Source: Actinomycetota bacterium (GTDB lineage Bacteria > Actinomycetota > JBBINU01). From it: a stretch of DNA of 64,000 bases. Below, piece by piece: positions 3,834-58,481 of this stretch. Both the position numbers and the translations under genes were made by a program. The notes below the pieces were generated by a model that did no database searches, was not told where the DNA came from, and saw only the letters and a list, made by a program, of their open reading frames with translations. The stretch lies in the NCBI GenBank assembly GCA_037443725.1, contig JBBINU010000011.1, forward strand, positions 4,833 to 68,832. Direction: 5' to 3'. Position 1 is the stretch's first letter; each line of letters starts with the position of its first letter.

Positions 3834-6800
3834 TCAGCGGGAGGGCGGGACCCGCGAGAGGGAGGCCCGCAGGCTGCGTGTCAATAGATCCCAGTCCCTT
3901 CGGGAGACCGCCCGGAGGGAAAAGAGGTAGATCAGAGCGCCGGCTAGCGCGAGGGCGGCGAGCAGGAGAAACTCGCTGGATGTGCGCGCAAGCCCTGTTC
4001 CTCGGGACGTGATCGGGGTCCAGAGCTCAGCGACCGCCCATGCGAGGGGAGCGGCCATGAAGAGGGAGGCAGCTGCGGAGCGCGCCAGCGTTCTGACAAG
4101 TTCGCGGTGGGCTCTGAAGCCGGTGGTCTGGTGGAGCGACCACAGGGCTAGCACGGCCCCCAAGCAGTAAGAGAGGGAATAGCCGAGGGCGAGCGCGGCC
4201 ACGCGGCCGCTAGAGGTCCTCAGTGAGGCGAAGAGGGCGATCTGCAACAGGGTTCCCGCGAGGGTGGAGATGAAGTTGATCCGTGCGGGGGTCCGGCTGT
4301 CGTGGAGAGCGTAGAAGGCCCGGACGAGGAGCTGGAAGAGGGTGAATCCCGGGAGCCCGACGGTGAAGGCGAGAAGCGCGGAGGCAACCAGGTCCACCGA
4401 GGCAGTGGTGACGGCGCCATGCTCGAGGGCGGTCTGGACGATGGGTCGGCCTAGAATTAGGTAGCCGAGAGTGGCAGGGGTGATGAGCAGGGCCGAGGCT
4501 CTGAGGCCGAGGGACACAGCCCGGTTGAAGCGGTCCCTGTCGCCAAGGACGGCGAAGCGGGAGAGGGGTGTGAGGAGGACGGTGTGGAGGGAAACGCCGA
4601 GTAACCCGTGGGGGATGATGAAGATTGTGAACGCCGCCTGGTAGGCGGTGAACCCTCCCTGCACGTGTGAGGCTAGGGCCATCACGACAAGAAGAGCAAG
4701 CTGGTTGGTTGCGACGTACAGGAGAATGTGCCGGCTGAGCCTGGCGAGCCGCTGGACGGTGGGGTCGAGCAAGGAGTTGGCGAGGGTGCGCAGGAAGGCC
4801 GGGAGTCGAGGTCCTCTTCCAGAAGGCTCCCCCGTCGCTTCCGGACGAACCAGTGGGTGCTTGCGCTGGTCTTGCTCGGTTGGGGCCTCATGGGTGGCTG
4901 GTGGGACCATGTTCCTGTGCCGTCGGGCCTGTTTGCGAAGAGAAGCCCCCCGCGGTAGGCGGAGGAGGGAGCGCAGCTGTATCCATGGGAGGAGGGCCAT
5001 GCCGGCCACGCCGGCAGTGGTCCCCAGGGCAAGAGCGAGGGTCTGGGCAGGGGAGATGGTTGAGAGGGTCGGCGGATGGCCTCCAGGGAGGACCAAGAGG
5101 AGGAGGGCTGTGGCAACCACGAGGAGGTTGTTCACGGCCGGGGCCAGGGAGGGAAGGGCGAAGCGCCCCGTCGCGTTCACGGCCGCAGTGGCTACCGCCG
5201 CGAGCCCGTAGAGGACGATCTGCGGCAGGAAGAAGGCGAGGAACACGGTGGCGGCTCGGCGGAAGAGCAGCTGCGTGTGGCTCGGCGAGACTCCTCGGGA
5301 GTAGAGCTGGGCGACTAGAGGGGAGAGGAGCACACCCAAGAGGGTGAGGAGCGTGAGGACGAGCGCCACGGCGGTGGCGATCCGGCGAACTGCCTTCGAG
5401 AAGGCCTCCCGACTCTCGTGAAGGGCGTGAACAAAAAGGGGGACCGCAGCACCCGAGAGGATGCCTCCAGCTACTAGCTCGAACACGATATTGGGGGTTG
5501 TGTTGGCAAGATTGTAGGCGTCGGCGAGCCTATCTTCTGCCACGCCTATGCTTGCCACGAGCGCCGCTGTCCTTAGAAAGCCTGTGAGGCGGGAGACGGC
5601 TGTCCCGATGGCCATGGCGGCGCCGGAGCGGAATAGCTTTCCGCGGTCTATCTCAGCTACCAGGTAGCCCTCCGGTTCCTCGAGGTTCTCCAGGTCGGCC
5701 CCGTCCGGCCCCTCGGGGTCGGAGGCCGGGTCCGGGTCCTTCCGGTCCTCCGGGCTCCTGAAATGAGCTGAGGCACCTCCGTCGGTCGCGGCACTTGGCC
5801 TACCTCGGGGGAAGGCGCCTGCCGTGTCCTGGTCGCAAGGTTGTCCTCCCCCGGGTGGTGTCAAGCCCTCGTCTCTAGGGGTACTGGCGTCCTTGGGGGG
5901 CGAAGGAGGCGCTGGTGGAGCTCCCTTCCCCCTCCTCGGCCTCCTTGCGCCCCTCACGATGAGCGCCAGCGCAGCGAGGGCGGTGATTGCCAGCCCTATC
6001 CGGTTATAAGCGGTGCTTCTCACGGGGAGCTCGGCCGTAAGCAGGGGGGGGCCTCCCGAGGGAGGGGCGAGGGAGACCTCTACCAATTCGGTTCCCGTTA
6101 CCTCGGCCCGGGCGGCGAAGAGGAGTACCTGCTGGCCGGGATTGAGGAGGACATTCAGCTCGGGTGAGGGAAAGGCAATCCTCGAGGAGCTTACGCTTAC
6201 TCTGGCTCGCAGGGGGTAAGCAGTTCCGTTGACGAGGGTCACAGGAACCCAGCCTGTTCGAGAGGTGAGGGTGACGGGCGTCACGTCTACTCTCAGCTTG
6301 TTGAGTTCTCCGCGGAGAACGGAAAGCCCAGCGGTGAGCATCTGGTGCTCGGCGCTGCCGGGTCCCGACTTCGACCAGTCTCCTCCCTCGGCGGAGAGAA
6401 GGAGAGCGATGGCGATATGCAGGGGCTGCGGCTCGCCCTCGACCATGCTCGCCAGCCTTGAGTACAGGGTGAGCGCTTGGGTGAGCTCGGGTGGGGGCGT
6501 GGGTAGGTTGGGTCTGGGCAGGAGCTTCCTTGCTGGTCCGCGCGGGAGGGAGAGGGCCTGGCTGGGAGTGAGGAAGCGAAGGAAAGGTACGCGAGGCAGG
6601 AGGGAGAAGAGCGACGTAAGGGCGCCCGGGTCGGGAACGCTGGTCGGGTAGATGGTGGCGACGCGGCGTACGGAGGGGGCCTGGAGCCAGGTCACAGCCG
6701 CCTCCGCGAGGAAGTCGAGGGCGCTTAAGGAGGTGCCTAGCTGGGAGAAGCGACTGGAGAGCGTTTCGTCGGGCAGGAGAGCCATCAGGGTCTCGCCCTG

Positions 6801-8000
6801 CCAGGAGACCGGAGCCGGTGCGGCGGGTGCGAACCTAGGGTCCGCGGGTGGTGAGAGGGAATCCCCGCTAATGAGAGCTGCGGTGAAGTGCTCTTGCAGC
6901 AGGAGGGTGGCGCTTGCCGGATCGAGGCGCCCTGCGTAGGGGGCAAATAGGGGCAGGGCCCGGAAGCCGAGAGCAGACAAGAGGGCCGCAGTCCTGGAGA
7001 TCTGTTGGCGTGCATGCTGAAGTGGGAGACCCCCTGCCAGGGCCGGGAGGTCCACGGGCGCGTAGGTGGAGGCGAGGAGTTCGACGCCAGGCCGGGAGGC
7101 GGCGTTCTTAAGCGCGTCCAGGGTTTTCCGGAGCTGAGGTCTAGTCTCGGGCGAGGAGTCCGCTGCAGGGCGAGGCGGCGCGTTCGGGAAGTCGAGGAAC
7201 CTGCCGTTCACTGCCAGGGCGAGAGGAACGGTTGCGGTAGCTATGGCCTCCAAGGTCTTGGGGACATCGCCTGCTTCCTGTGGGCCGCTGGTGCCGTTTG
7301 TGGTGTTCCAGTCGAGAGGGAGGATGAGCGTCATGTTCAGGGGTGGCGAGGGTTCCGACGGAAGCCAGATGACCCAAGTGAGCGCGGAGATCAGAGCTCG
7401 GCCTCGGGACTCTACCCTGACCTGGAGAGGAAACACGGCAGGGTCGGGCGGGAGCGGTGCTCGGTTGGGGTCAGCCTGGAGATAGATCTCGCGCTCCTCA
7501 CCGGGCCTGAGGGGGGGGACGGTCTCGGCAGCGAGCCTCAGGCCCAGGGAGGGCTGGACACGTCCCTCGACCATCAGGTCGAATTCAGACCGCGTCTCCA
7601 CTGGTGGGGCCAGATACGAGGCCACGACGAGCTCGGGTGAGGTAGAAGGCCCCGGCCAGGCAAGTCTTGCTCGCAGGTAGTACCTGTCTCCGGGGCGGAT
7701 CCAGAGGGTGGCATCGGTGATGGCGAGAAGCGGAGGCTGGTGCGTTGGCTGCGGGGCGGCGGTCGCCCGGGGTACGGCGATGCGCGGAAGGGGGATAAGG
7801 ATGAGCGAGGCCAGTAGGACCGAGGCGAGCCTCGAGGCGAGGCCCCCTCGGGTGTGAAGCACTGTGGGCCACCCTTGGCGCGAGATGGGGCGCGGGCAGC
7901 GAGCGGGCCAGTAGATGTTGCCCGGACCGAGAGGTGAGAGCTCCTGTCTCACGGTCCTTGCCGGCTTCCTTCTCTGAGCAGGGAAGGTCCCCAGCTCCAT
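3834..8000 (-). CDS. murJ: DUF6049-family exported domain fused in frame to lipid II flippase MurJ
   Basis: C-terminal part: RSGAAMAIGTAVSRLTGFLR, DAYNLANTTPNIVFELVAGGILS, FFLPQIVLYGL, LVRAFYALHDSRTP. N-terminal ~690 aa: signal-like helix, ASTYAPVDLPAL, VTLTSRTGWVPVTLVN, TM at RSTAYNRIGLAI. True start may be GTG 7862. Confidence 0.88.
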   Translation of the reverse strand: MELGTFPAQRRKPARTVRQELSPLGPGNIYWPARCPRPISRQGWPTVLHTRGGLASRLASVLLASLILIPLPRIAVPRATAAPQPTHQPPLLAITDATLWIRPGDRYYLRARLAWPGPSTSPELVVASYLAPPVETRSEFDLMVEGRVQPSLGLRLAAETVPPLRPGEEREIYLQADPNRAPLPPDPAVFPLQVRVESRGRALISALTWVIWLPSEPSPPLNMTLILPLDWNTTNGTSGPQEAGDVPKTLEAIATATVPLALAVNGRFLDFPNAPPRPAADSSPETRPQLRKTLDALKNAASRPGVELLASTYAPVDLPALAGGLPLQHARQQISRTAALLSALGFRALPLFAPYAGRLDPASATLLLQEHFTAALISGDSLSPPADPRFAPAAPAPVSWQGETLMALLPDETLSSRFSQLGTSLSALDFLAEAAVTWLQAPSVRRVATIYPTSVPDPGALTSLFSLLPRVPFLRFLTPSQALSLPRGPARKLLPRPNLPTPPPELTQALTLYSRLASMVEGEPQPLHIAIALLLSAEGGDWSKSGPGSAEHQMLTAGLSVLRGELNKLRVDVTPVTLTSRTGWVPVTLVNGTAYPLRARVSVSSSRIAFPSPELNVLLNPGQQVLLFAARAEVTGTELVEVSLAPPSGGPPLLTAELPVRSTAYNRIGLAITALAALALIVRGARRPRRGKGAPPAPPSPPKDASTPRDEGLTPPGGGQPCDQDTAGAFPRGRPSAATDGGASAHFRSPEDRKDPDPASDPEGPDGADLENLEEPEGYLVAEIDRGKLFRSGAAMAIGTAVSRLTGFLRTAALVASIGVAEDRLADAYNLANTTPNIVFELVAGGILSGAAVPLFVHALHESREAFSKAVRRIATAVALVLTLLTLLGVLLSPLVAQLYSRGVSPSHTQLLFRRAATVFLAFFLPQIVLYGLAAVATAAVNATGRFALPSLAPAVNNLLVVATALLLLVLPGGHPPTLSTISPAQTLALALGTTAGVAGMALLPWIQLRSLLRLPRGASLRKQARRHRNMVPPATHEAPTEQDQRKHPLVRPEATGEPSGRGPRLPAFLRTLANSLLDPTVQRLARLSRHILLYVATNQLALLVVMALASHVQGGFTAYQAAFTIFIIPHGLLGVSLHTVLLTPLSRFAVLGDRDRFNRAVSLGLRASALLITPATLGYLILGRPIVQTALEHGAVTTASVDLVASALLAFTVGLPGFTLFQLLVRAFYALHDSRTPARINFISTLAGTLLQIALFASLRTSSGRVAALALGYSLSYCLGAVLALWSLHQTTGFRAHRELVRTLARSAAASLFMAAPLAWAVAELWTPITSRGTGLARTSSEFLLLAALALAGALIYLFSLRAVSRRDWDLLTRSLRASLSRVPPSR

Positions 8001-28984: not shown

Positions 28985-30157
28985 TTACGGGATCCTTTCG
29001 ATTATGGTGGCGTTGGCCATACCGCCACCCTCGCACATAGTCTGAAGGCCGTACCTGCCGCCCCTCCTCTCGAGCTCGTAGAGGAGCTTGGTCATGAGGA
29101 TGGCCCCCGTTGCTCCAAGAGGGTGGCCGAGGGCGATGGCCCCGCCGTTGGGGTTCACGTGCTCCTCGAACCAGTCATCGGGAATGGCGAGCTCTTTCTT
29201 CCAGGCCAGAACCACTGAAGCGAAGGCCTCGTTTATCTCGACCACGTCCATGTCGTAAAGGCTAAGGCCGGTCCTCTCCAGGATCTTCCTGGTGGCCGGG
29301 ATGGGTCCAGAGAGCATGGTGACGGGGTCGACGCCGGCCAGGGCGAAGGCGTGGAACCTAGCCCTCGGCCGGAGGCCGAGCCTCTCGGCAGTCTCCCTCG
29401 AGGCCACCAGGAGGGCGGCGGCGCCGTCAGAGATCTGAGAGGAGTTCCCGGCCGTCACCACCCCGTCTTCCTTGAAGGCCGGCTTGAGAGCGGCCATCTT
29501 CTCGAGGGAGGTGTCGAAGCGGACCCCCTCGTCGATCTCGAAGAGCTCCGTGGAGCCGTTTTCCACCGTGACCTTGACGGGCGCGATCTGGCTCTGGAAG
29601 CGGCCCTCGCGGATGGCGCGGGCGGCTGTCTGGTGGCTGCGGTAGCCGAACCGGTCGAGCTCCTCCCGGGACAGCCCCCACCTGGCCGCCATGATCTCAG
29701 CGGAGATCCCCTGGGGAACGAGACCACCCTGGTACCTTTCCCACATGGACGGGGGGAAGGGGTTTGCTCCCTGGGAGCTCGATCCCATGGGCACTCTGGT
29801 CATGGACTCGACTCCTCCCACGACAACGAGGTCATAGACCCCCGCCATGATGCCCTGGGCCGCGAAATGGGCAGCCTGCTGGGACGAGCCACACTGCCTG
29901 TCCACGGTGGTGGCAGGGACCTCTTCGGGAAAGCCCGCGGCGAGCCAGGCGTTCCTGGCTATGTTGAAGGCCTGCTCCGAGGTCTGGCTCACGCAACCGA
30001 CGATGACGTCGTCGACGCGGGCCGGGTCTATACGGGTACGGGCCACGAGCTCCTTGAAGACGTGGGCCAGGAGCTCAGCGGGGTGCCAGTCCTTGAGCTT
30101 TCCGTTTCTCTTCCCCACCGGGGTTCGCACCGCTTCCACTATCACAGCTTCCCTCAT
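28985..30157 (-). CDS. Acetyl-CoA C-acyltransferase (thiolase)
   Basis: RQCGSSQQA, NEAFA, GHPLGATG, CEGGG catalytic motifs. Confidence 0.96.
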   Translation of the reverse strand: MREAVIVEAVRTPVGKRNGKLKDWHPAELLAHVFKELVARTRIDPARVDDVIVGCVSQTSEQAFNIARNAWLAAGFPEEVPATTVDRQCGSSQQAAHFAAQGIMAGVYDLVVVGGVESMTRVPMGSSSQGANPFPPSMWERYQGGLVPQGISAEIMAARWGLSREELDRFGYRSHQTAARAIREGRFQSQIAPVKVTVENGSTELFEIDEGVRFDTSLEKMAALKPAFKEDGVVTAGNSSQISDGAAALLVASRETAERLGLRPRARFHAFALAGVDPVTMLSGPIPATRKILERTGLSLYDMDVVEINEAFASVVLAWKKELAIPDDWFEEHVNPNGGAIALGHPLGATGAILMTKLLYELERRGGRYGLQTMCEGGGMANATIIERIP

Positions 30158-30279
30158 GCTGCACCCCCTGGGCATTTCCCTCTGAGGACGACCGGGCTCA
30201 GCCGGTCACGGTTGCACTTTAGGGCTGCTCGACCCCGGGGTCAAGTGGCTTGCCCTTTCCGATGTGGCTGCCGTGCGGG

Positions 30280-43338: not shown

Positions 43339-43923
43339 ATGAATCGCGGGTCTAGTGACGAAACAGAAAGCGTGACCCTGGCTCGCCGCGCGGTGGACCG
43401 CATTCTCTCCCCCTCCTACCTGGAGGGGGTTTCCCAGCTCGGTAGGGAGGAGATTTCCACGAAAAGGAGGGAGTGCCTCAGGGAGGAGGAGCGCCTCTCG
43501 TACGTCCGCAGGATCCTTCAGGCCCGTCTGGACCTCGTGAGGTTCGTCCTGTCCAGGAGGGAGCGCGGGGACCCCCTGAGCCTCTCCGAGCTTGTCCGAG
43601 CGCTGCCCGGAGTTCTGAGTCCTTCCGTTGGTGAGCCGAGGGGAGGGGCTGTTGCGGTCAGGGTGCCTTCGGGTCCCGCGCGGCGGCGCGAGGAGAGGGA
43701 CGCCTGGGGCGAGGTGCTGCTCCGGCTCCCGGAGATGGGCCGGGACGAGCTGGAGCTGCTCGCCAGGGAACTCGAGGAGGAGGAGAGAAGGGTCTCGGAG
43801 ATGAGGAGAGGGGTCCAGAGAGTCCTGGACGCCCTCACGGCTCTGCTCGCGGAGAGGTGGCGGGAGGAGCTTCGGGTTGGGGGGGAGCGGGTTGGGGATG
43901 AGGAAGATTCTGGTGGTGGATGA
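43339..43923 (+). CDS. rsiG: RsiG (AmfC)-family anti-sigma factor with two c-di-GMP-binding motifs
   Basis: AVDRILSPSYLEG N-terminus; E-X3-S-X2-R-X3-Q-X3-D twice: EERLSYVRRILQARLD (43486-43533) and ERRVSEMRRGVQRVLD (43783-43830). Confidence 0.88.
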   Translation: MNRGSSDETESVTLARRAVDRILSPSYLEGVSQLGREEISTKRRECLREEERLSYVRRILQARLDLVRFVLSRRERGDPLSLSELVRALPGVLSPSVGEPRGGAVAVRVPSGPARRREERDAWGEVLLRLPEMGRDELELLARELEEEERRVSEMRRGVQRVLDALTALLAERWREELRVGGERVGDEEDSGGG

Positions 43924-44293
43924 CGACCCCGTCTTCCGCGAGCTCCTCGCCGTGGTCCTTGGCGAGGAGTCGGTCAGGGTGGAGCAGGCAAGAGATGGGC
44001 TCGAGGCGCTGGACGCGGCGGAGCGACTCCGGCCGGAGGCGGTGGTTCTAGATTTGATGATGCCGGGGCTTGATGGTTGGGGTTTCCTTGCCGGTCTCCG
44101 CTCCCGGCCTGATCTTGCAGGTACGGAAGTGGTGGTGGTTACGGGGAGCGACGATCCGGCTGATAGGGAGAAGGCCGCGGCCTTGGGCTGCTCTGCGTAC
44201 CTGGTGAAGCCCTTCAGCCCCACTCGGCTCATCGAGGCGGTCACCTCGGCTCTAAAGGCAGGGGGTTTGGAGGGGACGCAGGATGAGGGCTGA
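43898..44293 (+). CDS. Single-domain response regulator
   Basis: ILVVDDD, phosphoacceptor in VVLDLMMPGLDG, VVVTG, YLVKPF; overlaps the rsiG end. Confidence 0.93.
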   Translation: MRKILVVDDDPVFRELLAVVLGEESVRVEQARDGLEALDAAERLRPEAVVLDLMMPGLDGWGFLAGLRSRPDLAGTEVVVVTGSDDPADREKAAALGCSAYLVKPFSPTRLIEAVTSALKAGGLEGTQDEG

Positions 44294-45056
44294 CTGGCTA
44301 AAGGCGGCGAGGGGTGAGGCTCCGAGCAGCGAGAACTCGGGTGTTGGTCCCGAGGGGCGGGCTCGCTCGCAGGCCGTCGAGCCTCAGGTGCTGGGTCAGC
44401 TCCTTGTCTTTGCGGCCGAGCTCAAGGAGCTCTACCGCAACCTCAAAAGGAGGACGAAAGAGCTGGAGGATGCCCTCTTCAGGCTGGAGCAGGCCTACCG
44501 GAGCACCGTGGAGACCATGGCCTTTGTCGTGGAGTTCAGGGACTGGGGAACGCGGCAGCATGTGGAGAGGGCTGCCCGGTATGCCATGGCCGTGGCCCGG
44601 AAGCTCGCCCCCGAGCTCGCTCAGGACCCGGCCCTCTATTACGGTTTTCTCCTACATGACGTGGGGAAGGTGGGCGTTCCCGACTCCCTCCTCGGCAAGA
44701 CGGGACCGCTCGACGAGATGGAGAGGGCGGTCATGAGGACCCACACCATCATCGGGGCGATGATCATCTCGGGAATCCCTGGGCTTGAGAGGATCGCCCC
44801 CATCATCCGCCATCACCACGAGCGTTGGGATGGGCACGGGTACCCGGACGGGCTCAAGGGTGAGGAGATCCCTCTCGGGGCGAGGATCTTCGCCGTGGCA
44901 GATGCCTTCGATGCCATGACGACCGACAGACCGTATCGGAAGGCCCTCGACGTGCAGGAAGCCCTGGACGAGCTGAGGCGGGGGGCGGGCACCCACTTCG
45001 ATCCGACCGTGGTGGAAACCTTTATCTCCCTGGTGGAAGAGGTTGGGGAGGAGTGA
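44283..45056 (+). CDS. HD-GYP c-di-GMP phosphodiesterase
   Basis: RD..T..H, LHDVGK, H..IG, HHERWDGHGYP, ADAFDAMTTDRPYRK; short N-terminal coiled coil only. Confidence 0.93.
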   Translation: MRADWLKAARGEAPSSENSGVGPEGRARSQAVEPQVLGQLLVFAAELKELYRNLKRRTKELEDALFRLEQAYRSTVETMAFVVEFRDWGTRQHVERAARYAMAVARKLAPELAQDPALYYGFLLHDVGKVGVPDSLLGKTGPLDEMERAVMRTHTIIGAMIISGIPGLERIAPIIRHHHERWDGHGYPDGLKGEEIPLGARIFAVADAFDAMTTDRPYRKALDVQEALDELRRGAGTHFDPTVVETFISLVEEVGEE

Positions 45057-45071
45057 GGCCGGGCTGGAAGG

Positions 45072-49436: not shown

Positions 49437-49512
49437 ATAGCATACCAGTCGGGTGCGTTCCTGTCGGCGGTCACAAACTGGCCCCCGGCGGTCTTCTGGT
49501 AACCTGCCGTGC

Positions 49513-50562
49513 GTGTCTTACCGGGTGCTGGTGGAGGGGGCCGAGGCGCTGGAGGTGCGCGGGCGGGCCCTGGAGGAGCTGGTTCGCTCCGATCCACGGG
49601 CGACCGTGTTCCACCTCCCTGCGTACCAGCGCTCGTGGTGGAGGTGGCTCGGAGAAGGGCGGGCCCGAGTGGTCTTGGTGGAAAGAGGCGGCGAGCTCCT
49701 GGGAGCCGCTTATTCCCACGTGGCCAGGGGTTTCCTTAGGTTCATGGGAGGGACCGACGTTACCGATTACCAGTGGCCCTTGGCCCTGGCCGGGGAGGAA
49801 GAGGCGGTGGCGCGGGCGCTGGCCGGCTTTTTCAGGGAGGAGCCTTGCCGGGCGCTGTCCTTGAGGCATCTGGACGAGGTCTGGGCGCGGCTGCTGGCTT
49901 GCTGCCTCGAGGAGGTGGGCCTCAAGGCCCGAGTGGCCCCCGACGCCCCGAGCCCTCAGATCTCGCTGGAGGGTGGCTACGCGGCCTACATGGACAGGCT
50001 CAGCTCCAAGCAGAGGCACGAGGTGAGGAGGAAACTGCGGAGGGCGGCCGAGGGCCTCCGCGGTCTCCGGGTGAGGCTCTATATGGGAGAGGCCGCCATC
50101 CCCCTCCTCCCCACCTTTTTCCGGCTGCACGCTTCTAGTTACGGCGGCAAGGGGGGGTTTCTCCTTCCATCGCGCCGGCTTTTCCTAGGTGCCCTGGCGC
50201 GGAGTCTCGGCCCCACCTTCGGGCTTGCCCTTCTGGAGGAGAGCGGCGAGGGGTCTCCCGTCCCACCTGCCGTTCAGCCCGTCAGCTCGGCCAGGCTGGG
50301 GGATCGCCCCTCGGCCCTCGCTGCCTGCCTGCTCTTCCTTTGGCGCGAGAGTGTCCTCCTGTACAACAGTGCCTTCGACAGGGGCATGGCCCATGTTTCT
50401 CCCGGAGTCGTACTGGTCCAGTCGCTCCTGGCCTGGGCCGCTCGCGAAGGGTACCGGACCTTTGACTTTCTCCGGGGAGGCGAGGAGTACAAGCAGAGGC
50501 TCGGGGCCGTTCCTCGGGAGCTCTACAGGGTGGACTATCTCGCAGCGCGGGAGGGCCCGTGA
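49513..50562 (+). CDS. GNAT family (CelD/BcsL, Acetyltransf_6) acyltransferase
   Basis: LSSKQRHEVRRKLRR, LLYNSAFD, SPGVVL, FDFLRGGEEYKQRLG; start approximate. Confidence 0.85.
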   Translation: MSYRVLVEGAEALEVRGRALEELVRSDPRATVFHLPAYQRSWWRWLGEGRARVVLVERGGELLGAAYSHVARGFLRFMGGTDVTDYQWPLALAGEEEAVARALAGFFREEPCRALSLRHLDEVWARLLACCLEEVGLKARVAPDAPSPQISLEGGYAAYMDRLSSKQRHEVRRKLRRAAEGLRGLRVRLYMGEAAIPLLPTFFRLHASSYGGKGGFLLPSRRLFLGALARSLGPTFGLALLEESGEGSPVPPAVQPVSSARLGDRPSALAACLLFLWRESVLLYNSAFDRGMAHVSPGVVLVQSLLAWAAREGYRTFDFLRGGEEYKQRLGAVPRELYRVDYLAAREGP

Positions 50563-51776
50563 GGAGGGAGGGTGTGGCCTTCCTCAGCCTTCACACCTCT
50601 CCCCTGGACCTGCCAGGAGAGGGAGCTGGCGGGGGGATGAACGTGTACGTGCGGGAGATGGCCGTCTCCCTGGCCCGTCTCGGTCTTGCTGTGGACATAT
50701 ACACTCGGGCTTCCTCTCCCGGCCTCCCCCCCGTGGTGGAGCTTGCTCCCGGGGTACGCCTGTTTCACCTCGAGGCCGGCCCGGCGCGGCCCCTCCCCAA
50801 GGGGGCCCTCGCCCGGCACCTCGCGGCGTTCCTCTGCTCGTTCATGGGAACCTCCCAGGGGCTGGCAGGGGCGAGTTACTCCCTCGTTCACGCCCACTAC
50901 TGGCTGGCCGGATGGGCGGCGAGTCTGGCTGCGGAGAGGTGGGGGATACCGCTGGTCCAGTCCTTTCACACGCTGGCCAGGAGGAAGGAGCGAGCTGGTT
51001 TTCCCGAGCCGCCGATAAGGAGCTCGACGGAGGCAAGGCTTGCCCGTCAGGCATCGCTCGTGGTGGCCATGAGCCGGTCCGAGGCGGAGGACCTGGAGAG
51101 GCTGTACGGGGTGCCGCCCGACCGGGTGGTGGTGGCCGCTCCCGGAGTGCGCACGGAGGTGTTTCGACCGCGGCCGCGGGAGGGCCAGGCCTTCAGGCAT
51201 TCTCTAGGGATGGAGAGGGGTCCCCTGCTGCTTTTCGCGGGAAGGCTTGAACCCCTCAAGGGGCCCGAGCTCTTTGTGAGGGCCCTCTGTTTTCTTCCCG
51301 AGGCCCAAGGGCTTGTGGTGGGAGGGGGGAGCGCCCCGGGGGAGGGGCGGAGGCTGGAGAGGCTCGTTTACGAGCTGGGGTTGGAGCGGAGGGTGCGTTT
51401 CCTCCGCCCCCTGCCGCAGGAGAGGCTGGCTGTGGCTTACTCCGCAGCGGACCTGGTGGTTGTCCCCTCGGCGGCGGAGAGCTTCGGCCTGGTGGCTCTG
51501 GAGGCGCAGGCCTGCGGTACTCCGGTGGTGGCGGTGAGGACGGGAGGGTTGCAGGAGGTGGTGGCGGACGGCAGGACGGGGGTCCTGCTCGGCGAGAGGA
51601 ACCCGGAGGCCTTCGCCCGCGCCATCGCCGCCCTTCTCGCCTCCCCCGCGCTTCTTGCCTCCATGCGGGAGAGGGCCAGGCGGAGGGCTTCCAGGCAGAC
51701 CTGGGAGGCGGCAGCCTCGGTACTGGTCGGAGCCTACCGGCGGATCCTCGAGGCCGAGAGGCTCGCCTCGGCGTGA
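50559..51776 (+). CDS. mshA: D-inositol-3-phosphate glycosyltransferase (mycothiol pathway)
   Basis: LHTSPL..PG...GGMNVYVRE, HAHYWLAG, SFHTLA, GRLEPLKG, ESFGLVALEAQACGTPVVA; followed by a YbjN gene. Confidence 0.85.
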   Translation: MRREGVAFLSLHTSPLDLPGEGAGGGMNVYVREMAVSLARLGLAVDIYTRASSPGLPPVVELAPGVRLFHLEAGPARPLPKGALARHLAAFLCSFMGTSQGLAGASYSLVHAHYWLAGWAASLAAERWGIPLVQSFHTLARRKERAGFPEPPIRSSTEARLARQASLVVAMSRSEAEDLERLYGVPPDRVVVAAPGVRTEVFRPRPREGQAFRHSLGMERGPLLLFAGRLEPLKGPELFVRALCFLPEAQGLVVGGGSAPGEGRRLERLVYELGLERRVRFLRPLPQERLAVAYSAADLVVVPSAAESFGLVALEAQACGTPVVAVRTGGLQEVVADGRTGVLLGERNPEAFARAIAALLASPALLASMRERARRRASRQTWEAAASVLVGAYRRILEAERLASA

Positions 51777-52450: not shown

Positions 52451-53644
52451 ATGGCCGTCGACCTGTCGCTCGCGCCCGAGCAGGAGGAGATGAGGAAGGT
52501 CGCGCACGAGTTCGCGGAGAAGGAGATCCGCCCTGTGGCTCCCGAGTACGACGAGAAGGAGGAGTATCCCTGGCCCGTGGTGGAGAAAGCCCACCGAATC
52601 GGGCTTACCAATTACTACTTCCCTGAAGAGTACGGCGGGGGAGGGATTACCGATGCCATCACGGAGTTCGTGGTGGGAGAGGAGCTGCACTGGGGTTGTG
52701 CTGGTATCGCTACGGCCATTCACGCCACTGCCCTGGCCGCAGCGGGCATCTTTGCCCTCGGGACTGAAGAGCAGAAGAAGAAGTGGATCCCTCTCTTTTG
52801 CGACCCCGAGAACCTTAGGATAGGGGCGATGGGCCTGACGGAGCCCCATGCGGGATCCGACGCGGGCGCCATAAGGACCACGGCCAGGCGGGAGGGGGAC
52901 TATTACGTCCTGAACGGCCAGAAGATGTTCTGCACCAATGGAGGCATTGCTGACCTCCACCTCTTCTTCGCTACGGAGGATCCAAGCCTGGGGTGGGCCG
53001 GGATTGCCGGCTTCATCGTCCCCAAGGACACCCCGGGGCTTGTCATGCTCCGGAAGGAGAGAAAGATGGGAGTGAGGGCGTCCCACACGGCCACTATGGC
53101 CCTGGACGAGGTGAGGGTTCCGGCGGAGAACAGGCTCGGACCCGAGCCAACCCCGGAGAACCGATACGCTGGGGCGGTAGGGGCCCTCAAGATGCTGGAG
53201 AGGACGAGGCCGGGGGTGGGCGCCGGTGCGGTGGGCATCGCCCGAGCGGCGTTCGAGTATGCTCTGGACTACGCCAGGGAGCGGTACGCCTTCGGGAAGC
53301 CCATCGCCCTGCACCAGGCCATCGCCTTCAAGTTTGCCGACATGGCCACCCAGATAGACGCGGCCAGGCTGCTCGTGTGGAGAGCGGGATGGATGATGGA
53401 CCGGGGCCTTCCCCTCGCGCGGGGGGAGGGTTCCATGGCCAAGCTTTACGCGGGGGACGTGGCCGTAAGGGTGTGTGTGGATGCCATCCAGATTCTCGGG
53501 GGGCACGGATACATCCGGGACCACCCCGTGGAGAAGTGGCTCAGGGACGCCAAGGTTTACCAGATCTGGGAAGGAACCGCCGAGATCCAGAGGCTCGTCA
53601 TCTCCAGGGCGATCACGGGCAAGATAGAGAGAAAGGAGGGCTGA
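52451..53644 (+). CDS. Acyl-CoA dehydrogenase
   Basis: YGGGG, GLTEPHAGSD, LNGQKMFCTNG, QILGGHGY, QIWEGTAEIQR. Confidence 0.95.
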   Translation: MAVDLSLAPEQEEMRKVAHEFAEKEIRPVAPEYDEKEEYPWPVVEKAHRIGLTNYYFPEEYGGGGITDAITEFVVGEELHWGCAGIATAIHATALAAAGIFALGTEEQKKKWIPLFCDPENLRIGAMGLTEPHAGSDAGAIRTTARREGDYYVLNGQKMFCTNGGIADLHLFFATEDPSLGWAGIAGFIVPKDTPGLVMLRKERKMGVRASHTATMALDEVRVPAENRLGPEPTPENRYAGAVGALKMLERTRPGVGAGAVGIARAAFEYALDYARERYAFGKPIALHQAIAFKFADMATQIDAARLLVWRAGWMMDRGLPLARGEGSMAKLYAGDVAVRVCVDAIQILGGHGYIRDHPVEKWLRDAKVYQIWEGTAEIQRLVISRAITGKIERKEG

Positions 53645-53665
53645 GCCGGCCGGCGTCGGACGCGC

Positions 53666-55480
53666 TCAATCGCGGGCGAAGAGCCGTGCCGCAAAGGCCT
53701 GCCTCACTTCGGGGGGAACCGAGGGGCCATATCTCACCAGGAGAGCGTTGGCCGGGTCTGTCGCCACTTCGGGGTCGTCGGTCGGAACCTCCTCGAACCC
53801 CGCCCGCGCCAGCGCCCTCCTCAGGGCCTTCCCCGTCTCTGGCGAGGCAAGACCCCTCCGGGCGGTCTCAAGGTGCCAGCGGACCGCATAGGTGATGAGG
53901 ACCACCTGGTCGAGAAAGGGGTCCTCCAGGGCGAAGGAGAGGAGTCCCGTGCCCACGCCCTGCCCCTGCCAGCTTCCCGCCACCTCCACGGCGAGCATCT
54001 CGTAGACCCCCGGGACCCCGGCGAACCTCCCTTCGGGATTGGCGAAGAGCAGGAGGGCTACGGTCTCGCCCGTAGGGGCCTCCGCGGCGACCACGCCGAG
54101 GTCGCGCCTGGTGGCGAGCCGCCGTAAGAGGGCCCGGCGGTCCCCCTCCCGGCGAGGGAGGATGGCGAGGTCAGGGCAGGGCTGGAGGGACGGAAGGTCC
54201 TCGGGCAAGACCCAGGCCCGGAGGAGGAGCCTGCCCTTCCGGGTCTCGAGCCTCCCTTGGCGGGGGAGGAGGCCGAGATGCGGGAGGAGGGCTGGAGGCT
54301 GGGCCGCCTGCGGGGAGAGGGAGTAGGCACGCTGGACCAGAACGGGGAGGGAGAGGAGCTTGACCCTACGGAGCCTCCTGGCTGTCTCCCTTTCGATCTC
54401 TGCCCTTCTCGGGATCGGCTCGAAGGCACCGGGGGGGTCGCCAAAGCCCTTGGGCAGCATGGCCTCCCCCCACTTTCGCCTCCAGGACTCGGGCAGGGCT
54501 GGGGGGAGAGGGCGTCCAGACATCTCCGCCCAGAGAAGGGCCAGGCAACGGGCCACCACGGATACCTCGTAGCCCCCGCCTCCGAGAGCTAGCCACCTTC
54601 CGCCGGCGTGCTCGTGGGCCACCCGGTGGATGAGCCTAGCCGCGCCCTCGTAGGCAGCCGTCGTGAGGGAGAGGTCGGAGAGGGGATCGAGAGCGTGGCC
54701 GTCGCAGCCGTGCTGAGAGACGACGATGTCGGGGCCGAAGAAAGCTGCCACGGCGGGTACCAGCTCCTCCAGGGCGGCGAGAAAGGCGCCGTCCTCGGTG
54801 AAGGGTTCCAGGGGAAGGTTAAGGCTGAACCCCCTCCCTCTCCCCACCCCCCTCTCTCCTATCTCTCCGGTGCCGGGGAAGAGGAATCTCCCGGTCTCGT
54901 GGAGGGAGAGGGTACAGACGCTGGGGTCATCGTAGAAGGCAAACTGAACTCCGTCCCCGTGGTGGGCATCTATGTCAACGTAAAGCACGCGGAACCCCGC
55001 CTGCCTGGTGAGCCAGGTGAGGGCGAGGGCTATGTCGTTGTAAACGCAAAAGCCGCTCGCCCTCTCCCGGTGGGCATGGTGTAGACCGCCCGCGATGTTC
55101 ATGGCGTGGAGCACCTCGCCCGATGCGACGGCACGAGCTGCCGCCAGGGTGAGGCCAGCGGCGGCGGCGTAGGCTTCGTGCATGCCCGGGAAGATGGGAT
55201 TGTCCTGGGTGCCGAGGCCGTGCTCGCGGGCCTCTTCGAGGAAGTGAGGTTCGGGGCTGGTACTGGAGAGGGCCTTCACCAGCTCGACATACCCCTTCCT
55301 GTGGAAGAGGGTGAGCTCGTCGTCGGTGGCGGGGCTGGCGGCAGCGCTCTCCTCCTTGCGGAGGAGGCCCGCTTCCTCAAGAAGATCGAGGGTGGCGAGG
55401 AGCCTTCTCGGGTCCAGGGGATGGCCCGGAACGTGGAACTTCGCAACCGTAGGGTTCCAGAAGAACCGGGAATCGCACAT
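53666..55480 (-). CDS. AcuC-type Zn-dependent lysine deacetylase fused to an AcuA-type GNAT acetyltransferase
   Basis: N-terminal HDAC: GHP, GGLHHA...SGFCVYND, DIDAHHGDG, GCDGHALDPL, GGGGY. C-terminal GNAT: YEMLAVEV, WQGQGVG, RWH, TDDPEVATDPANALLVRYG. Confidence 0.92.
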   Translation of the reverse strand: MCDSRFFWNPTVAKFHVPGHPLDPRRLLATLDLLEEAGLLRKEESAAASPATDDELTLFHRKGYVELVKALSSTSPEPHFLEEAREHGLGTQDNPIFPGMHEAYAAAAGLTLAAARAVASGEVLHAMNIAGGLHHAHRERASGFCVYNDIALALTWLTRQAGFRVLYVDIDAHHGDGVQFAFYDDPSVCTLSLHETGRFLFPGTGEIGERGVGRGRGFSLNLPLEPFTEDGAFLAALEELVPAVAAFFGPDIVVSQHGCDGHALDPLSDLSLTTAAYEGAARLIHRVAHEHAGGRWLALGGGGYEVSVVARCLALLWAEMSGRPLPPALPESWRRKWGEAMLPKGFGDPPGAFEPIPRRAEIERETARRLRRVKLLSLPVLVQRAYSLSPQAAQPPALLPHLGLLPRQGRLETRKGRLLLRAWVLPEDLPSLQPCPDLAILPRREGDRRALLRRLATRRDLGVVAAEAPTGETVALLLFANPEGRFAGVPGVYEMLAVEVAGSWQGQGVGTGLLSFALEDPFLDQVVLITYAVRWHLETARRGLASPETGKALRRALARAGFEEVPTDDPEVATDPANALLVRYGPSVPPEVRQAFAARLFARD

Positions 55481-55645
55481 TCTGGCTTCTCTAGCTTACC
55501 TGTGGGCGGCCTCGCGCTGGAGGGGTGTAGCCCCCGGCACCGGTGGCCGGTGTGCCCTCTGGGGTAGACTCCCGCCTGCCCACGGCGGCCGGAGGGAGAG
55601 GTGACCGGGAGAGAGGTTGATGGCGACCGCAGGGGTGGGCGAGGT

Positions 55646-56413
55646 GTGAAGGAGGAGAGGGTGGCGGTTCCCTCGGAGGGCCTTCTCCTCCCGGGCTTTC
55701 TAGCGAGCCCCGAAGGGCGAGCCCGAGGGAGCATCCTCCTCCTTCACGGTTTCCCCTCGGGCTCGCCGCCAGAGCCCGACGATCCCGGATACCCGGGTCT
55801 TGCCAGGGAGCTGGCCGCCAGGGGATGGACAGCCCTCGCCCTCACGTTCCGGGGAGCCCACGGCGCTCCGGGAAGGTTCTCCCCGGCGGGCTGGCTCGAG
55901 GATGCCAGCTCGGGCCTGCGCTGGCTCGCCTCGAGGGCCGGGAGGGCGGTGGTTGTCGGCTCCAGCATGGGGGGCGCCGTGGGGGCTGCGGCGGCTCTCC
56001 GGAACCCTCGGGAAGTGATGGGCCTCGCCCTCCTCGCCTCACCGGCTACGCTGGCCCGGTTCGCTACAGCGGAGCGGGCCGAGCCCTTCTACGCCAGGGC
56101 CCTTGAGCTGGGCCTGGTGGAGCCCATGGAGGGAGAGGAGTTGGCAGACTGGGCTAGGGGGTTTGCCCTCCTCGACGCGGTCTCGGCCTTGCGGGAGCTG
56201 GCGGGAAAACCGGTTCTTGTGCTGCACGGCACCGACGACGATCTGGTCCCTCTCGCGGCTGCTGAGGAGCTTTATAGGGCAGCCTCTGGGCCCAAGGATC
56301 TGGTGGTGCTCGAGGGAGCGGGTCACCGTCTCCGACGGGAGCCCCGGGCTCTGGAGGCGCTCTTTCGTTGGCTCCAAGGGCTGCAGGGAGGGCAGGCGCC
56401 TGCGCCCAGCTGA
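55646..56413 (+). CDS. Alpha/beta-fold hydrolase
   Basis: LLHGFP, GSSMGG, LHGTDDDLVP, EGAGH triad. Confidence 0.9.
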   Translation: MKEERVAVPSEGLLLPGFLASPEGRARGSILLLHGFPSGSPPEPDDPGYPGLARELAARGWTALALTFRGAHGAPGRFSPAGWLEDASSGLRWLASRAGRAVVVGSSMGGAVGAAAALRNPREVMGLALLASPATLARFATAERAEPFYARALELGLVEPMEGEELADWARGFALLDAVSALRELAGKPVLVLHGTDDDLVPLAAAEELYRAASGPKDLVVLEGAGHRLRREPRALEALFRWLQGLQGGQAPAPS

Positions 56414-56541: not shown

Positions 56542-57324
56542 GTGGAGTACTCGAGGGAGCTTGCCATGGCGAGGGTCTGGGCCGAGGGGGCCGGGCGTCT
56601 CCTGCTCCGGCAGTTCCGTTCTCCCCATCTCCGGTTCGAGATCAAGCCGGACGGAACCCCTGTGACGCCAGCCGACCGCGAGGCCGAGGAGCTTCTAAGG
56701 GAGGCCATCGGGAAAGCCTTCCCAGGCGACGGGATCCTGGGTGAGGAGGGCGGTGAGGAGGGCGTTGGGGAGAGGCGCTGGATCCTCGACCCTCTCGACG
56801 GAACGAAGAACTTCGTGCGCGGGATACCCATCTTCGGTGTGCTGGTGGCCCTCGAGGTGAAGGGGGAACCGGTGGTGGGGGTGGTTCACGCTCCCGCCCT
56901 GGGAAGCACATGGTGGGCGGCGAGGGGGATGGGGGCTTGGCGGGACGGTGAGAGGATCAGGGTCTCCTCGGTGGCCAGACTTGAGGATGCCTTTATGCTC
57001 CATGGATCGGTCCGGGAGTTCCTCGACAGGGGGGCGGAAGCTGCCTTCCTCGCCCTCGCCCGGGCCACTTCCCGTCAGAGGGGCTTCGGCGACTTCTGGT
57101 CACACCTCCTGGTTGCGGAGGGGGCTGCCGAGATCATGCTTGAGCCTCTCCTTGCCCCGTGGGACTTCGCACCGCTCAAGGTGATTGTCGAGGAGGCAGG
57201 AGGGAGACTCACCGACTTCGAGGGTGGCTTCGCTCTTAGGCCCTCCAGTTGCCTAACCACGAACGGCATCCTCCACGAGGCCGCTCTCGCTGTGCTCGCG
57301 GCCAACAGCCCGGGCCGGCCCTAG
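56542..57324 (+). CDS. hisN: Histidinol-phosphatase, inositol monophosphatase family
   Basis: KPDGTPVTPAD, LGEE, WILDPLDGTKNFVRG, GFGDFW, PWDFAP..IVEEAGG. Confidence 0.82.
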   Translation: MEYSRELAMARVWAEGAGRLLLRQFRSPHLRFEIKPDGTPVTPADREAEELLREAIGKAFPGDGILGEEGGEEGVGERRWILDPLDGTKNFVRGIPIFGVLVALEVKGEPVVGVVHAPALGSTWWAARGMGAWRDGERIRVSSVARLEDAFMLHGSVREFLDRGAEAAFLALARATSRQRGFGDFWSHLLVAEGAAEIMLEPLLAPWDFAPLKVIVEEAGGRLTDFEGGFALRPSSCLTTNGILHEAALAVLAANSPGRP

Positions 57325-58481
57325 CGAAGGGCGTCGTGGCCGGTGAGGTCCCTCCCTATGGTGAGGGTGTGGATGTCCCAGGTCCCCTCATAGGTGTCGA
57401 CGGATTCGAAGTTCAGCATGTGGCGGATGGTGGCGTGCTCGACGGTTATCCCCGCCGCCCCCAAGATCTCCCTGGCGGTCCTCGCCACCTCCAGGGCGGT
57501 CCTCACATTCTCCCTCTTGGCCAGGGAGACCTGGGCGTGGCGGAGTCTTCCCTCCTCCTTCAGCCTTCCTAGGTGGTAGGCGAGAAGCTGGGACCGGGTG
57601 ATGCCTGCCAGCATCCGGACCAGCTTCTCCTGGACGAGCTGGCGGGAGGCGATGGGGGCCCCGAAGGTGACTCTGGTAGAGGCAAATGAGAGAGCCTCCA
57701 GGTAGCAGTCCTCAGCCGCTCCCAGGACGCCCCAGGCGATTCCGTACCTGGCCTGGGTCAGGCAGGAGAGGGCCGCCTTCAGGCCCACCGCCCCGGGGAG
57801 GGCAGCCGTCTCGGGGAGGGCGACCTCGTCGAGGTAGAGCTCGGAAGTGACTGAGGCCCTCATGGAGAACTTCCCCTTTACCTCTCTTGCCTCGAAACCC
57901 GGGGTGTCCGTGGGGACCAGGAAGCCCCTGAACTCTCCCTCCTCGTCCCTCGCCCAGACCAGGGCGATGTGTGCCAGGGTTCCATTGGTGATCCAGGCCT
58001 TCCTGCCGTTCAGGATCCAGGTGTTCCCTCTCTTTCTAGCCCTGGTGCGCGTGGAGCCCGGGTCGGATCCTCCTTCGGGCTCGGTCAGGCCGAAACAGCC
58101 CACCACTCGCCCGGAGGCCAACTCGGGGAGGAGCTTCTTCTGCTCCTCCGAGCCGTAGCTCGCTATGGGGAACATGACGAGGGCTCCCTGGACGCTCGCG
58201 AAGGAGCGGAGGGCCGAGTCCCCTCTCTCCAGCTCCCTCATGGCCAGGCCGTAGGCGACCTCCCCGAGTCCTGCGCACCCGTACTCGGGCGGCAGGTTCG
58301 CTCCCAGGAGGCCCAGCTCCCCCATGGTGGTGACGAGGTGGGAGGGGAAGGCCCCCTCCGTCCACCACCTCGAGATGTGCGGACGGACCTCGCTGTCGAC
58401 GAACTCCCTTACAGCGTCCCTGACGAGCCTCTCCTCGTGGCTGAGGAGCCTTGAGAACTCGAGGTAATCCACCTCCCTCAT
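57321..58481 (-). CDS. Acyl-CoA dehydrogenase, glutaryl-CoA dehydrogenase-like
   Basis: YGLAMRELERGDSALRSFASVQGALVM, FGLTEPEGGSDP, SCLTQARYGIAWG, TYEGT.DIH.L. Confidence 0.9.
   Translation of the reverse strand: MREVDYLEFSRLLSHEERLVRDAVREFVDSEVRPHISRWWTEGAFPSHLVTTMGELGLLGANLPPEYGCAGLGEVAYGLAMRELERGDSALRSFASVQGALVMFPIASYGSEEQKKLLPELASGRVVGCFGLTEPEGGSDPGSTRTRARKRGNTWILNGRKAWITNGTLAHIALVWARDEEGEFRGFLVPTDTPGFEAREVKGKFSMRASVTSELYLDEVALPETAALPGAVGLKAALSCLTQARYGIAWGVLGAAEDCYLEALSFASTRVTFGAPIASRQLVQEKLVRMLAGITRSQLLAYHLGRLKEEGRLRHAQVSLAKRENVRTALEVARTAREILGAAGITVEHATIRHMLNFESVDTYEGTWDIHTLTIGRDLTGHDALR

Follow-up and report, generated by a model that had tools for sequence, protein, structure and literature searches.

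A natural AcuC–AcuA fusion protein as a probable single-chain writer–eraser of acetyl-CoA synthetase

When the enzyme that installs a regulatory acetyl group and the enzyme that removes it are parts of the same polypeptide, what does the pair act on, and what prevents it from running in a futile cycle? This question is raised by a gene in a stretch of 64,000 nucleotides from an Actinomycetota bacterium (GenBank assembly GCA_037443725.1, contig JBBINU010000011.1, positions 4,833 to 68,832 of the forward strand), referred to here as the window, with positions counted from its first nucleotide. The gene (53666–55480, minus strand) codes for a protein of 604 residues, followed by a stop codon at 53666–53668, in which an AcuC-type lysine deacetylase precedes an AcuA-type lysine acetyltransferase; all features of this gene given below lie on the same strand. 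The original prediction for the locus, made from the nucleotide sequence, viewed the protein as a bifunctional writer–eraser that does without the regulator AcuB and avoids futile cycling intramolecularly. Here we show that the fusion is real and belongs to a widespread family, and we propose that it probably is a single-chain writer–eraser for acetyl-CoA synthetase (Acs), i.e., a fused version of the Bacillus-type acetyl-CoA synthetase switch.

The reversible acetylation of Acs is a model case of bacterial metabolic control by lysine acetylation. In the Bacillus system AcuA binds the synthetase AcsA tightly and, given acetyl-CoA, acetylates Lys549 (PMC11910552, PMC11255334), which is the B. 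subtilis number of the lysine that is acetylated in the PKTRSGKIMRR motif (PMC11532494). The last ~8 residues of AcuA plug the coenzyme A (CoA) site of AcsA, and in pull-down experiments complex formation was substantially weaker when the last 7 residues were missing (PMC11910552). AcsA is deacetylated by AcuC, and the ACT domain of AcuB binds AcuC, with an inhibition that responds to adenine nucleotides (AMP-bound AcuB) or to diadenosine tetraphosphate (Ap4A) (PMC13121692, PMC13039410). The acu operon has been described as distributed in Firmicutes (PMC13121692).

Results

One continuous reading frame joins deacetylase and acetyltransferase

The reading frame starts with ATG, and the closest in-frame stop codon upstream is only 5 codons away. 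Translation, profile matches and matches to structures in the PDB agree with the predicted single frame of 604 residues, and all sequence motifs that had been quoted for it are present at their places in the translated protein, i.e., HH at residues 134–135, DIDAH at 169–173, D260, GGGGY at 300–304, QGQGVG at 505–510, WH at 535–536, and TDDPEVATDPANALLVRYG. The same 604-residue protein is found in three assemblies, namely the contig of the metagenome-assembled genome (MAG) at NCBI and two separately assembled SRA runs (Logan). The contigs of the two runs, both from subsurface metagenomes (word depth 16.7 and 6.5), span positions 53500–55700 without an insertion or deletion, and their sole difference from the window is a T>G exchange at 54253 that is synonymous in Arg410 (AGG>CGG). 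A stop codon or frameshift between the domains had been named as one observation that would speak against the fusion; judged on the assembled contigs, neither run has one across the linker, which we map to 54257–54316, in agreement with the expected domain boundary near 54260 and junction at 54260–54370.

These data bear on the possibility that an error of assembly or sequencing joined two neighboring genes, or that the gene is a decaying read-through product. A few metagenomic relatives (L097, L101 and L103) are indeed split into two overlapping open reading frames (ORFs) in different frames, one coding for the deacetylase and the other for the AcuC tail and AcuA, and these copies reflect either sequencing errors or genes that are truly split or decaying. 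For the window protein, its identity in three assemblies without indels and the existence of more than 100 collinear full-length homologues mean that both an artefact and a decaying read-through can in practice be ruled out. Furthermore, the order of the domains, AcuC and then AcuA, is opposite to the gene order in the operon and therefore cannot result from simple read-through, and the predicted structure is a confident, compact fold. We conclude that the fusion ORF is real, and assign a negligible probability to an artefact or pseudogene.

The N-terminal half is an AcuC-type class I deacetylase

The N-terminal half is a class I histone deacetylase (HDAC) of the AcuC type with a complete set of catalytic and zinc-binding residues. 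As had been anticipated, the Hist_deacetyl model (Pfam PF00850) matches residues 20–319 (54524–55423) far above its threshold, with 291.3 bits against a gathering cut-off of 27.9. A sequence search of the PDB with this half returns HDAC6, the Aquifex HDAC homologue HDLP and HDAC1/2/3/8 at E-values of 1e-72 to 1e-47, and a Foldseek comparison of the AlphaFold2 model gives TM scores of 0.85–0.89 to HDAC3, HDAC2 and HDAC8 (about 0.88 for HDAC3 and HDAC2). The catalytic histidine pair His134–His135 in the sequence GGLHHA (55076–55081) is invariant in all of 100 aligned fusions, and the same holds for Asp260, the third zinc ligand (54701–54703), and for Tyr304, the transition-state tyrosine of the GGGGY loop (54569–54583). 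In the DIDAH motif (54962–54976), Asp171 and His173 are also invariant, and Asp169 is conserved in 99 of the 100 proteins; by analogy with HDAC8, we take Asp171 and His173 to be zinc ligands and Asp169 to belong to a monovalent-cation site.

The catalytic domain is followed by a helical segment, residues 320–388 (54317–54523), whose helices are modeled with a predicted local distance difference test score (pLDDT) of 81–94. In most Bacillota loci, stand-alone AcuC ends with ~40 residues that are also matched by a profile of residues 336–405, and residues 320–388 are therefore assigned to the AcuC C-terminal tail and not to the linker. The activity predicted for this half is the deacetylation of acetyl-lysine on Acs.

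The C-terminal half resembles AcuA and retains the catalytic glutamate

The two halves are connected by a linker of ~20 residues (389–408, SPQAAQPPALLPHLGLLPRQ; 54257–54316), which is the least conserved segment in the alignment of 100 fusions (majority fraction 0.45) and contains the only block of low confidence in the AlphaFold2 model (pLDDT 53 at residues 391–400). Residues 409–604 (53669–54256) constitute the AcuA-type GNAT acetyltransferase domain. With the C-terminal 234 residues as query, the PDB entry 2q04 is matched at E = 3.4e-18 over residues 12–201 of 211, and B. subtilis AcuA as seen by cryo-EM in complex with AcsA (9g7f_C) at E = 3.1e-14 over residues 10–200 of 210, such that residue 10 of AcuA aligns from about residue 409 of the fusion. 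In a ranking by similarity, made with a single or a repeated origin of the fusion in view, the AcuA domain of the window protein falls among those of the other fusions and ahead of every stand-alone AcuA from Bacillota; a similar ranking of the HDAC half does not discriminate. A word-indexed homology search with the C-terminal 281 residues returned no matches, and it was the exhaustive HMMER and PDB searches that recovered the AcuA relatives. No NCBIfam model matches either half, and the top 50 Foldseek matches of the full-length model are all HDACs; the AcuA assignment rests on sequence.

Glu499 (53984–53986) maps, through the alignment with the PDB matches, to Glu102, the key catalytic residue of B. 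subtilis AcuA (PMC11910552). The acetyl-CoA pyrophosphate-binding motif QGQGVG (residues 505–510; 53951–53968) begins with Gln in the window protein and with Arg in the 99 other fusions. Either residue is accommodated at the first position of the canonical GNAT motif, Q/R-x-x-G-x-G/A. Several other invariant positions of the AcuA domain, Glu494, Trp504, Trp535, Arg583 and Gly585, are likewise retained. As far as its sequence allows us to judge, the C-terminal half is a complete AcuA-type GNAT with the catalytic Glu preserved, for which acetyltransferase activity is predicted.

The catalytic Glu is conserved in 89 of the 100 fusions and replaced by Gln in 9, Ala in 1 and Gly in 1, with P0043, P0078, P0129 and P0069 as examples of substituted proteins. 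They could be naturally occurring “dead-writer” variants, whose AcuA half just docks onto Acs or inhibits it. Such a role could also be considered for the window protein, i.e., that of an Acs-directed deacetylase and inhibitor with an AcuA half that serves chiefly as a docking or steric-inhibitor module and has hardly any transferase activity or none. In B. subtilis, the binding of AcuA is enough to inhibit AcsA, and neither acetyl-CoA nor Glu102 is required for this (PMC11910552). In addition to the replacement of the Glu in 11 of 100 family members, the window protein has many non-consensus residues in its AcuA half. However, this protein keeps Glu499, Glu494 and an intact QGQGVG motif, the Glu is present in the 89 remaining members, and a C-terminal tail that is shortened (see below) speaks against a stronger steric plugging of the synthetase. 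We regard a mere docking role of the AcuA half as quite improbable.

The model of the whole protein, calculated with AlphaFold2 from an alignment of 100 sequences, has a mean pLDDT of 90.3 and a predicted template modeling score (pTM) of 0.91. On account of these values, the model indicates that the two domains hold a defined mutual arrangement in a compact structure, and are not arranged as beads on a string.

The fusion defines a family found mostly in Chloroflexota

At least 120 clusters of homologues (90% identity) were identified with lengths of 558–718 residues and 39–50% identity to the window protein, nearly all of which align with 88–100% of its length; alignments of 30 and of 100 fusions are collinear through both domains. 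The genes at 80 reference-genome loci and 80 metagenome loci were assigned by comparing their ORFs with profiles of both fusion halves and of Bacillus AcsA and AcuB, the latter two from locus L008. Besides the window protein, 60 single-ORF fusions were found among the fetched loci, in which the N-terminal, tail and C-terminal profiles all match one ORF.

The named members of the family are mostly Chloroflexota. Single-ORF fusions are present in Ktedonobacterales, one of them in the cultured species Dictyobacter aurantiacus (strain S27, L052; NZ_BIFQ01000001.1, about 5.2627–5.2646 Mb), and the source names add MAGs of Chloroflexi, Dehalococcoidia and Ktedonobacteraceae as hosts. The distribution does not lend support to Actinomycetota as the home of the architecture, which had been suggested originally; in this respect the window copy is an outlier.

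Two kinds of related protein were encountered at the margins of the family. Stand-alone AcuA-like genes of ~220–245 codons with the fusion-type WHWD motif occur at L121, L124, L147, L151, L154–L157 and other loci, and no HDAC gene is detected near them within the fetched flanks of up to 6 kb on each side; hence, an unfused form of the fusion-type AcuA exists too. P0140 (489 residues), P0181 (464), P0257 (467), P0145 (719) and P0189 (387) start with an AcuA-like domain or have it close to the N-terminus, with 200–500 more residues behind it, and we consider these proteins to be putative AcuA fusions of other architectures.

AcuB and acetyl-CoA synthetase genes accompany the fusion

At 39 of the 45 fusion loci with at least 700 nucleotides of upstream sequence, an AcuB-like gene is located directly upstream on the same strand, and often overlaps the start codon of the fusion gene. 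The encoded proteins contain a CBS pair and can be aligned with Bacillus AcuB nearly from end to end; one of them gives a weak, sub-threshold match to ACT. At 10 loci an acsA gene is also found upstream on the same strand, and the PKTRSGKIMRR motif is kept in all six AcsA proteins whose C-terminus falls inside the fetched locus. The typical arrangement is thus (acsA)-acuB-acuC::acuA, and this linkage ties the family firmly to the control of acetyl-CoA synthetase.

The original proposal that the fusion takes the place of AcuB, and by itself avoids futile cycling, finds no support in these data. The frequency of the upstream gene shows that AcuB remains the usual solution and has not been replaced by the fusion, and the closest fused relative of the window protein, P0121, has an overlapping CBS gene upstream of the fusion gene, on a contig that also encodes RsiG. 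Consequently, we view the family as a version of the Bacillus AcsA/AcuABC switch in which eraser and writer are fused and AcuB presumably stays in control, and not as a self-regulating substitute for AcuB.

The same linkage is informative about the chemical nature of the substrate. Many GNATs acetylate small amines. Some bacterial enzymes with the HDAC fold are acetylpolyamine amidohydrolases (PMC11532494), and both domains could by this token act on acetylated polyamines or other amines instead of protein lysines. On the other hand, the best matches of the deacetylase half are class I HDACs, its tail is common to Bacillota AcuC, the GNAT half matches AcuA specifically, and the genes linked to the family are acsA and acuB, all of which makes a small-molecule enzyme very unlikely.

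Proposed mechanism

In the mechanism that we propose for the single-chain writer–eraser, the AcuA half would dock tightly onto Acs and serve as the off-switch, and the zinc-dependent class I HDAC domain would hydrolyze the acetyl-lysine of Acs and turn the synthetase on again. The fusion would set a 1:1 ratio of the two activities, and hold the eraser at the substrate that is bound by the writer domain. In most members, acetyl-CoA at the AcuA site and the co-transcribed AcuB presumably determine together in which direction the switch works, with AcuB as a CBS-pair/ACT nucleotide sensor that would inhibit AcuC; since the eraser would be gated by AcuB, the pair would not simply hydrolyze acetyl-CoA. 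With AcuA as the last domain, its C-terminus is free, as would be expected if this end must be inserted into the CoA site of AcsA, and we infer that this may be the reason for the order of the domains. For the window protein, any partner Acs and AcuB would be encoded elsewhere in the genome; Acs as its target is proposed by analogy with the family.

The window copy is a divergent, stand-alone member

The window also encodes CrgA, DUF881, sortase, RsiG, CarD and DisA proteins, and the named relatives of the DisA protein are all Actinomycetota with identities of at most 61%. The host, sampled in a subsurface metagenome, is an actinobacterium that branches deeply. The fusion gene is separated from a divergent alpha/beta-hydrolase gene upstream (55601–56413, plus strand) by 120 bp (55481–55600) that presumably contain the promoter, and its downstream neighbor is a convergent acyl-CoA dehydrogenase gene (52451–53644, plus strand); from this arrangement it follows that the fusion gene is monocistronic.

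Several features of the window copy weigh against its assignment as a regulator of Acs. Neither an AcsA-like protein or other AMP-forming ligase, nor an AcuB-like protein, is encoded in the 64-kb window, so that the original statement that acuB is missing holds for the entire stretch. The protein is the most divergent of the 100 family members: of the 150 columns in which the other 99 fusions agree to at least 90%, it departs from the consensus at 28, compared with a median of 2. Examples are R187S, R307S, P310A, W313L and N366T, and, in the AcuA half, H467E, T468A, G532A, W537L, D538E and Y549T. The C-terminal tail, RLFARD (53669–53686), which is located where AcuA has its plug for the CoA site of AcsA, extends only 4 residues beyond the conserved RL, compared with a family median of 9 (4 or fewer in just 3 of 100 proteins); the one aromatic residue in it is the Phe beside RL, and the terminal aromatic residues of other members are missing. 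Finally, the generic GNAT model Acetyltransf_1 reaches 15.4 bits, below its cut-off of 20.7, and a precomputed match to this family (PF00583) is available for some homologues only. The AcuA structures, on the other hand, are matched over nearly their full length, and we consider the shortfall of the generic Pfam model to be outweighed by the specificity of the match to AcuA.

We considered whether the 28 off-consensus residues could reflect a lost interface with AcuB, and rejected this explanation: at nearly all of the 28 sites, five other fusions without acuB have the consensus residue, and the changes therefore belong to the lineage of the window protein. Taken together, the window copy is an atypical, divergent, stand-alone actinobacterial member of the family.

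A copy of this kind might have lost its linkage to acs and acuB altogether and act on other acyl-CoA synthetases, or on a broader set of acetylated proteins, as an autonomous acetylation switch outside an acs-acuB operon that is free of AcuB, takes its direction from acetyl-CoA and CoA only, and possibly has new targets. The extreme divergence, which is found chiefly in the AcuA half, the short tail, the monocistronic gene and the lack of acs and acuB in 64 kb are all compatible with this view, and in B. subtilis more than one substrate has been reported for AcuC, e.g., TufA (PMC13039410). The gene moreover sits among acyl-CoA dehydrogenase genes: besides the downstream neighbor, two more are located at 57321–58481 (minus strand) and from ~63625 to the end of the window (minus strand), and the longer contig carries a fourth just past the window end. 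A gene for a thiolase (~28988–30160, minus strand) lies about 24 kb away. The dehydrogenase genes were the basis for the original suggestion that the protein controls acyl-CoA ligases that serve the nearby dehydrogenases. Our data do not support that suggestion, since an acyl-CoA ligase is missing from the window, the dehydrogenase neighborhood is not conserved around related fusions, and the target that is co-encoded with the family is acsA (10 loci). With respect to retargeting in general, a stretch of 64 kb without acs and acuB is hardly informative on the genome as a whole, and the core catalytic residues as well as Glu494, Trp504, Trp535, Arg583 and Gly585 have been retained. A retargeted, AcuB-independent switch therefore appears unlikely to us, and we maintain the assignment of the window protein as a probable single-chain writer–eraser for Acs.

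With regard to the surrounding genes, we noted neither an acyl-CoA ligase nor an enoyl-CoA hydratase nor a hydroxyacyl-CoA dehydrogenase near the acyl-CoA dehydrogenase and thiolase genes. A few kb from the fusion gene, a FemAB-like Acetyltransf_6 gene (49453–50562, plus strand) overlaps a family GT4 glycosyltransferase gene (50559–51776, plus strand) that is followed by a YbjN-like gene, and the three possibly form a cassette for modification of the cell envelope. At ~43339–45060 (plus strand), tandem genes for an RsiG-like anti-sigma factor, a response-regulator receiver and an HD/HD_5 (HD-GYP-like) protein look like a regulatory cluster related to cyclic di-GMP. Farther away, an ORF of 1388 codons (3834–8000, minus strand) matches the lipid II flippase MurJ and faintly DUF6049, and would represent an unusually long MurJ fusion.

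Discussion

Searches of ~8.3 million full texts, with subscription-only literature outside their scope, returned no description of a natural AcuC–AcuA fusion; where papers on AcuA and AcuC speak of a fusion, His or GST tags are meant. The original remark that this fusion is not known to have been characterized is in agreement with this result. The architecture itself is visible in automatic annotations, several clusters carrying the JGI label “AcuC-like enzyme/GNAT superfamily N-acetyltransferase”, and it thus appears to be uncharacterized but not unseen.

The family extends the Acs acetylation switch to Chloroflexota and Actinomycetota, and provides “Rosetta-stone” evidence that writer and eraser work on the same substrate complex. 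It may imply that AcsA, AcuA, AcuC and AcuB act as one physical complex, at which the separate Bacillus proteins only hint. Structures of AcuA–AcsA and AcuB–AcuC were published just in 2024–2026, and always with separate Bacillus proteins; with the fusion, the structure of the whole switch could be studied on a single chain. The fusion also poses the question of the futile cycle sharply, because the net reaction of both activities would be the hydrolysis of acetyl-CoA. The variants in which the catalytic Glu is replaced, and orphan copies such as that in the window, represent natural experiments on which half serves what.

The closest known system is AcsA-AcuABC of B. subtilis and Geobacillus. 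Both enzymes of the fusion are homologous to their counterparts there, and the equivalent of Glu102, the HDAC catalytic set and the AcuC tail are all present; most fused relatives also co-encode an AcuB-like gene, and often an acsA with the lysine motif RSGKIMR. The systems differ in that the fusion is one polypeptide with AcuC in front of AcuA, whereas the Bacillota loci have separate genes in the order acuA-acuB-acuC, with acuA before acuC. The acsA gene is co-directional in the fused family but divergent in Bacillus, and the hosts of the fusion are Chloroflexota and Actinomycetota. The window copy is set apart further by the lack of a nearby acuB or acsA.

A writer–eraser pair without an intervening acuB is also known from Paenibacillus and other Paenibacillaceae, where acuA and acuC are adjacent at L010, L012, L018, L021, L022, L024, L036, L045 and L054. 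In contrast to the fusion, acuA and acuC are here two ORFs of their own, which overlap in some cases and have acuA in front; a divergent acsA next to them is seen at L010 and L012. The arrangement also departs from the canonical acuABC operon of Bacillus.

Single polypeptides that both install and remove a regulatory mark, attached covalently to an enzyme of metabolism, are represented by GlnE (adenylyltransferase/removase), GlnD (uridylyltransferase/removase), AceK (kinase/phosphatase) and HprK/P, and in these enzymes an allosteric input is needed against a futile cycle. The comparison with GlnD and GlnE made in the original prediction is fair as a functional analogy, but there is no homology between these enzymes and the fusion, whose predicted chemistry comprises acetyl transfer from acetyl-CoA and zinc-dependent hydrolysis. 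Furthermore, the allosteric input of most fusions apparently comes from a separate protein, AcuB.

Finally, the fusion can be compared with GNATs that are joined to a regulatory or accessory domain and that acetylate the A10 lysine of Acs, i.e., Pat/PatZ with an acyl-CoA-synthetase-like domain of the nucleoside diphosphate (NDP)-forming type, the actinobacterial ACT-GNAT proteins, and GNATs with a cyclic-nucleotide (cNMP) domain. In those proteins the partners are sensor or scaffold domains; in the fusion described here the GNAT is of the AcuA type, and the partner is the opposing deacetylase.

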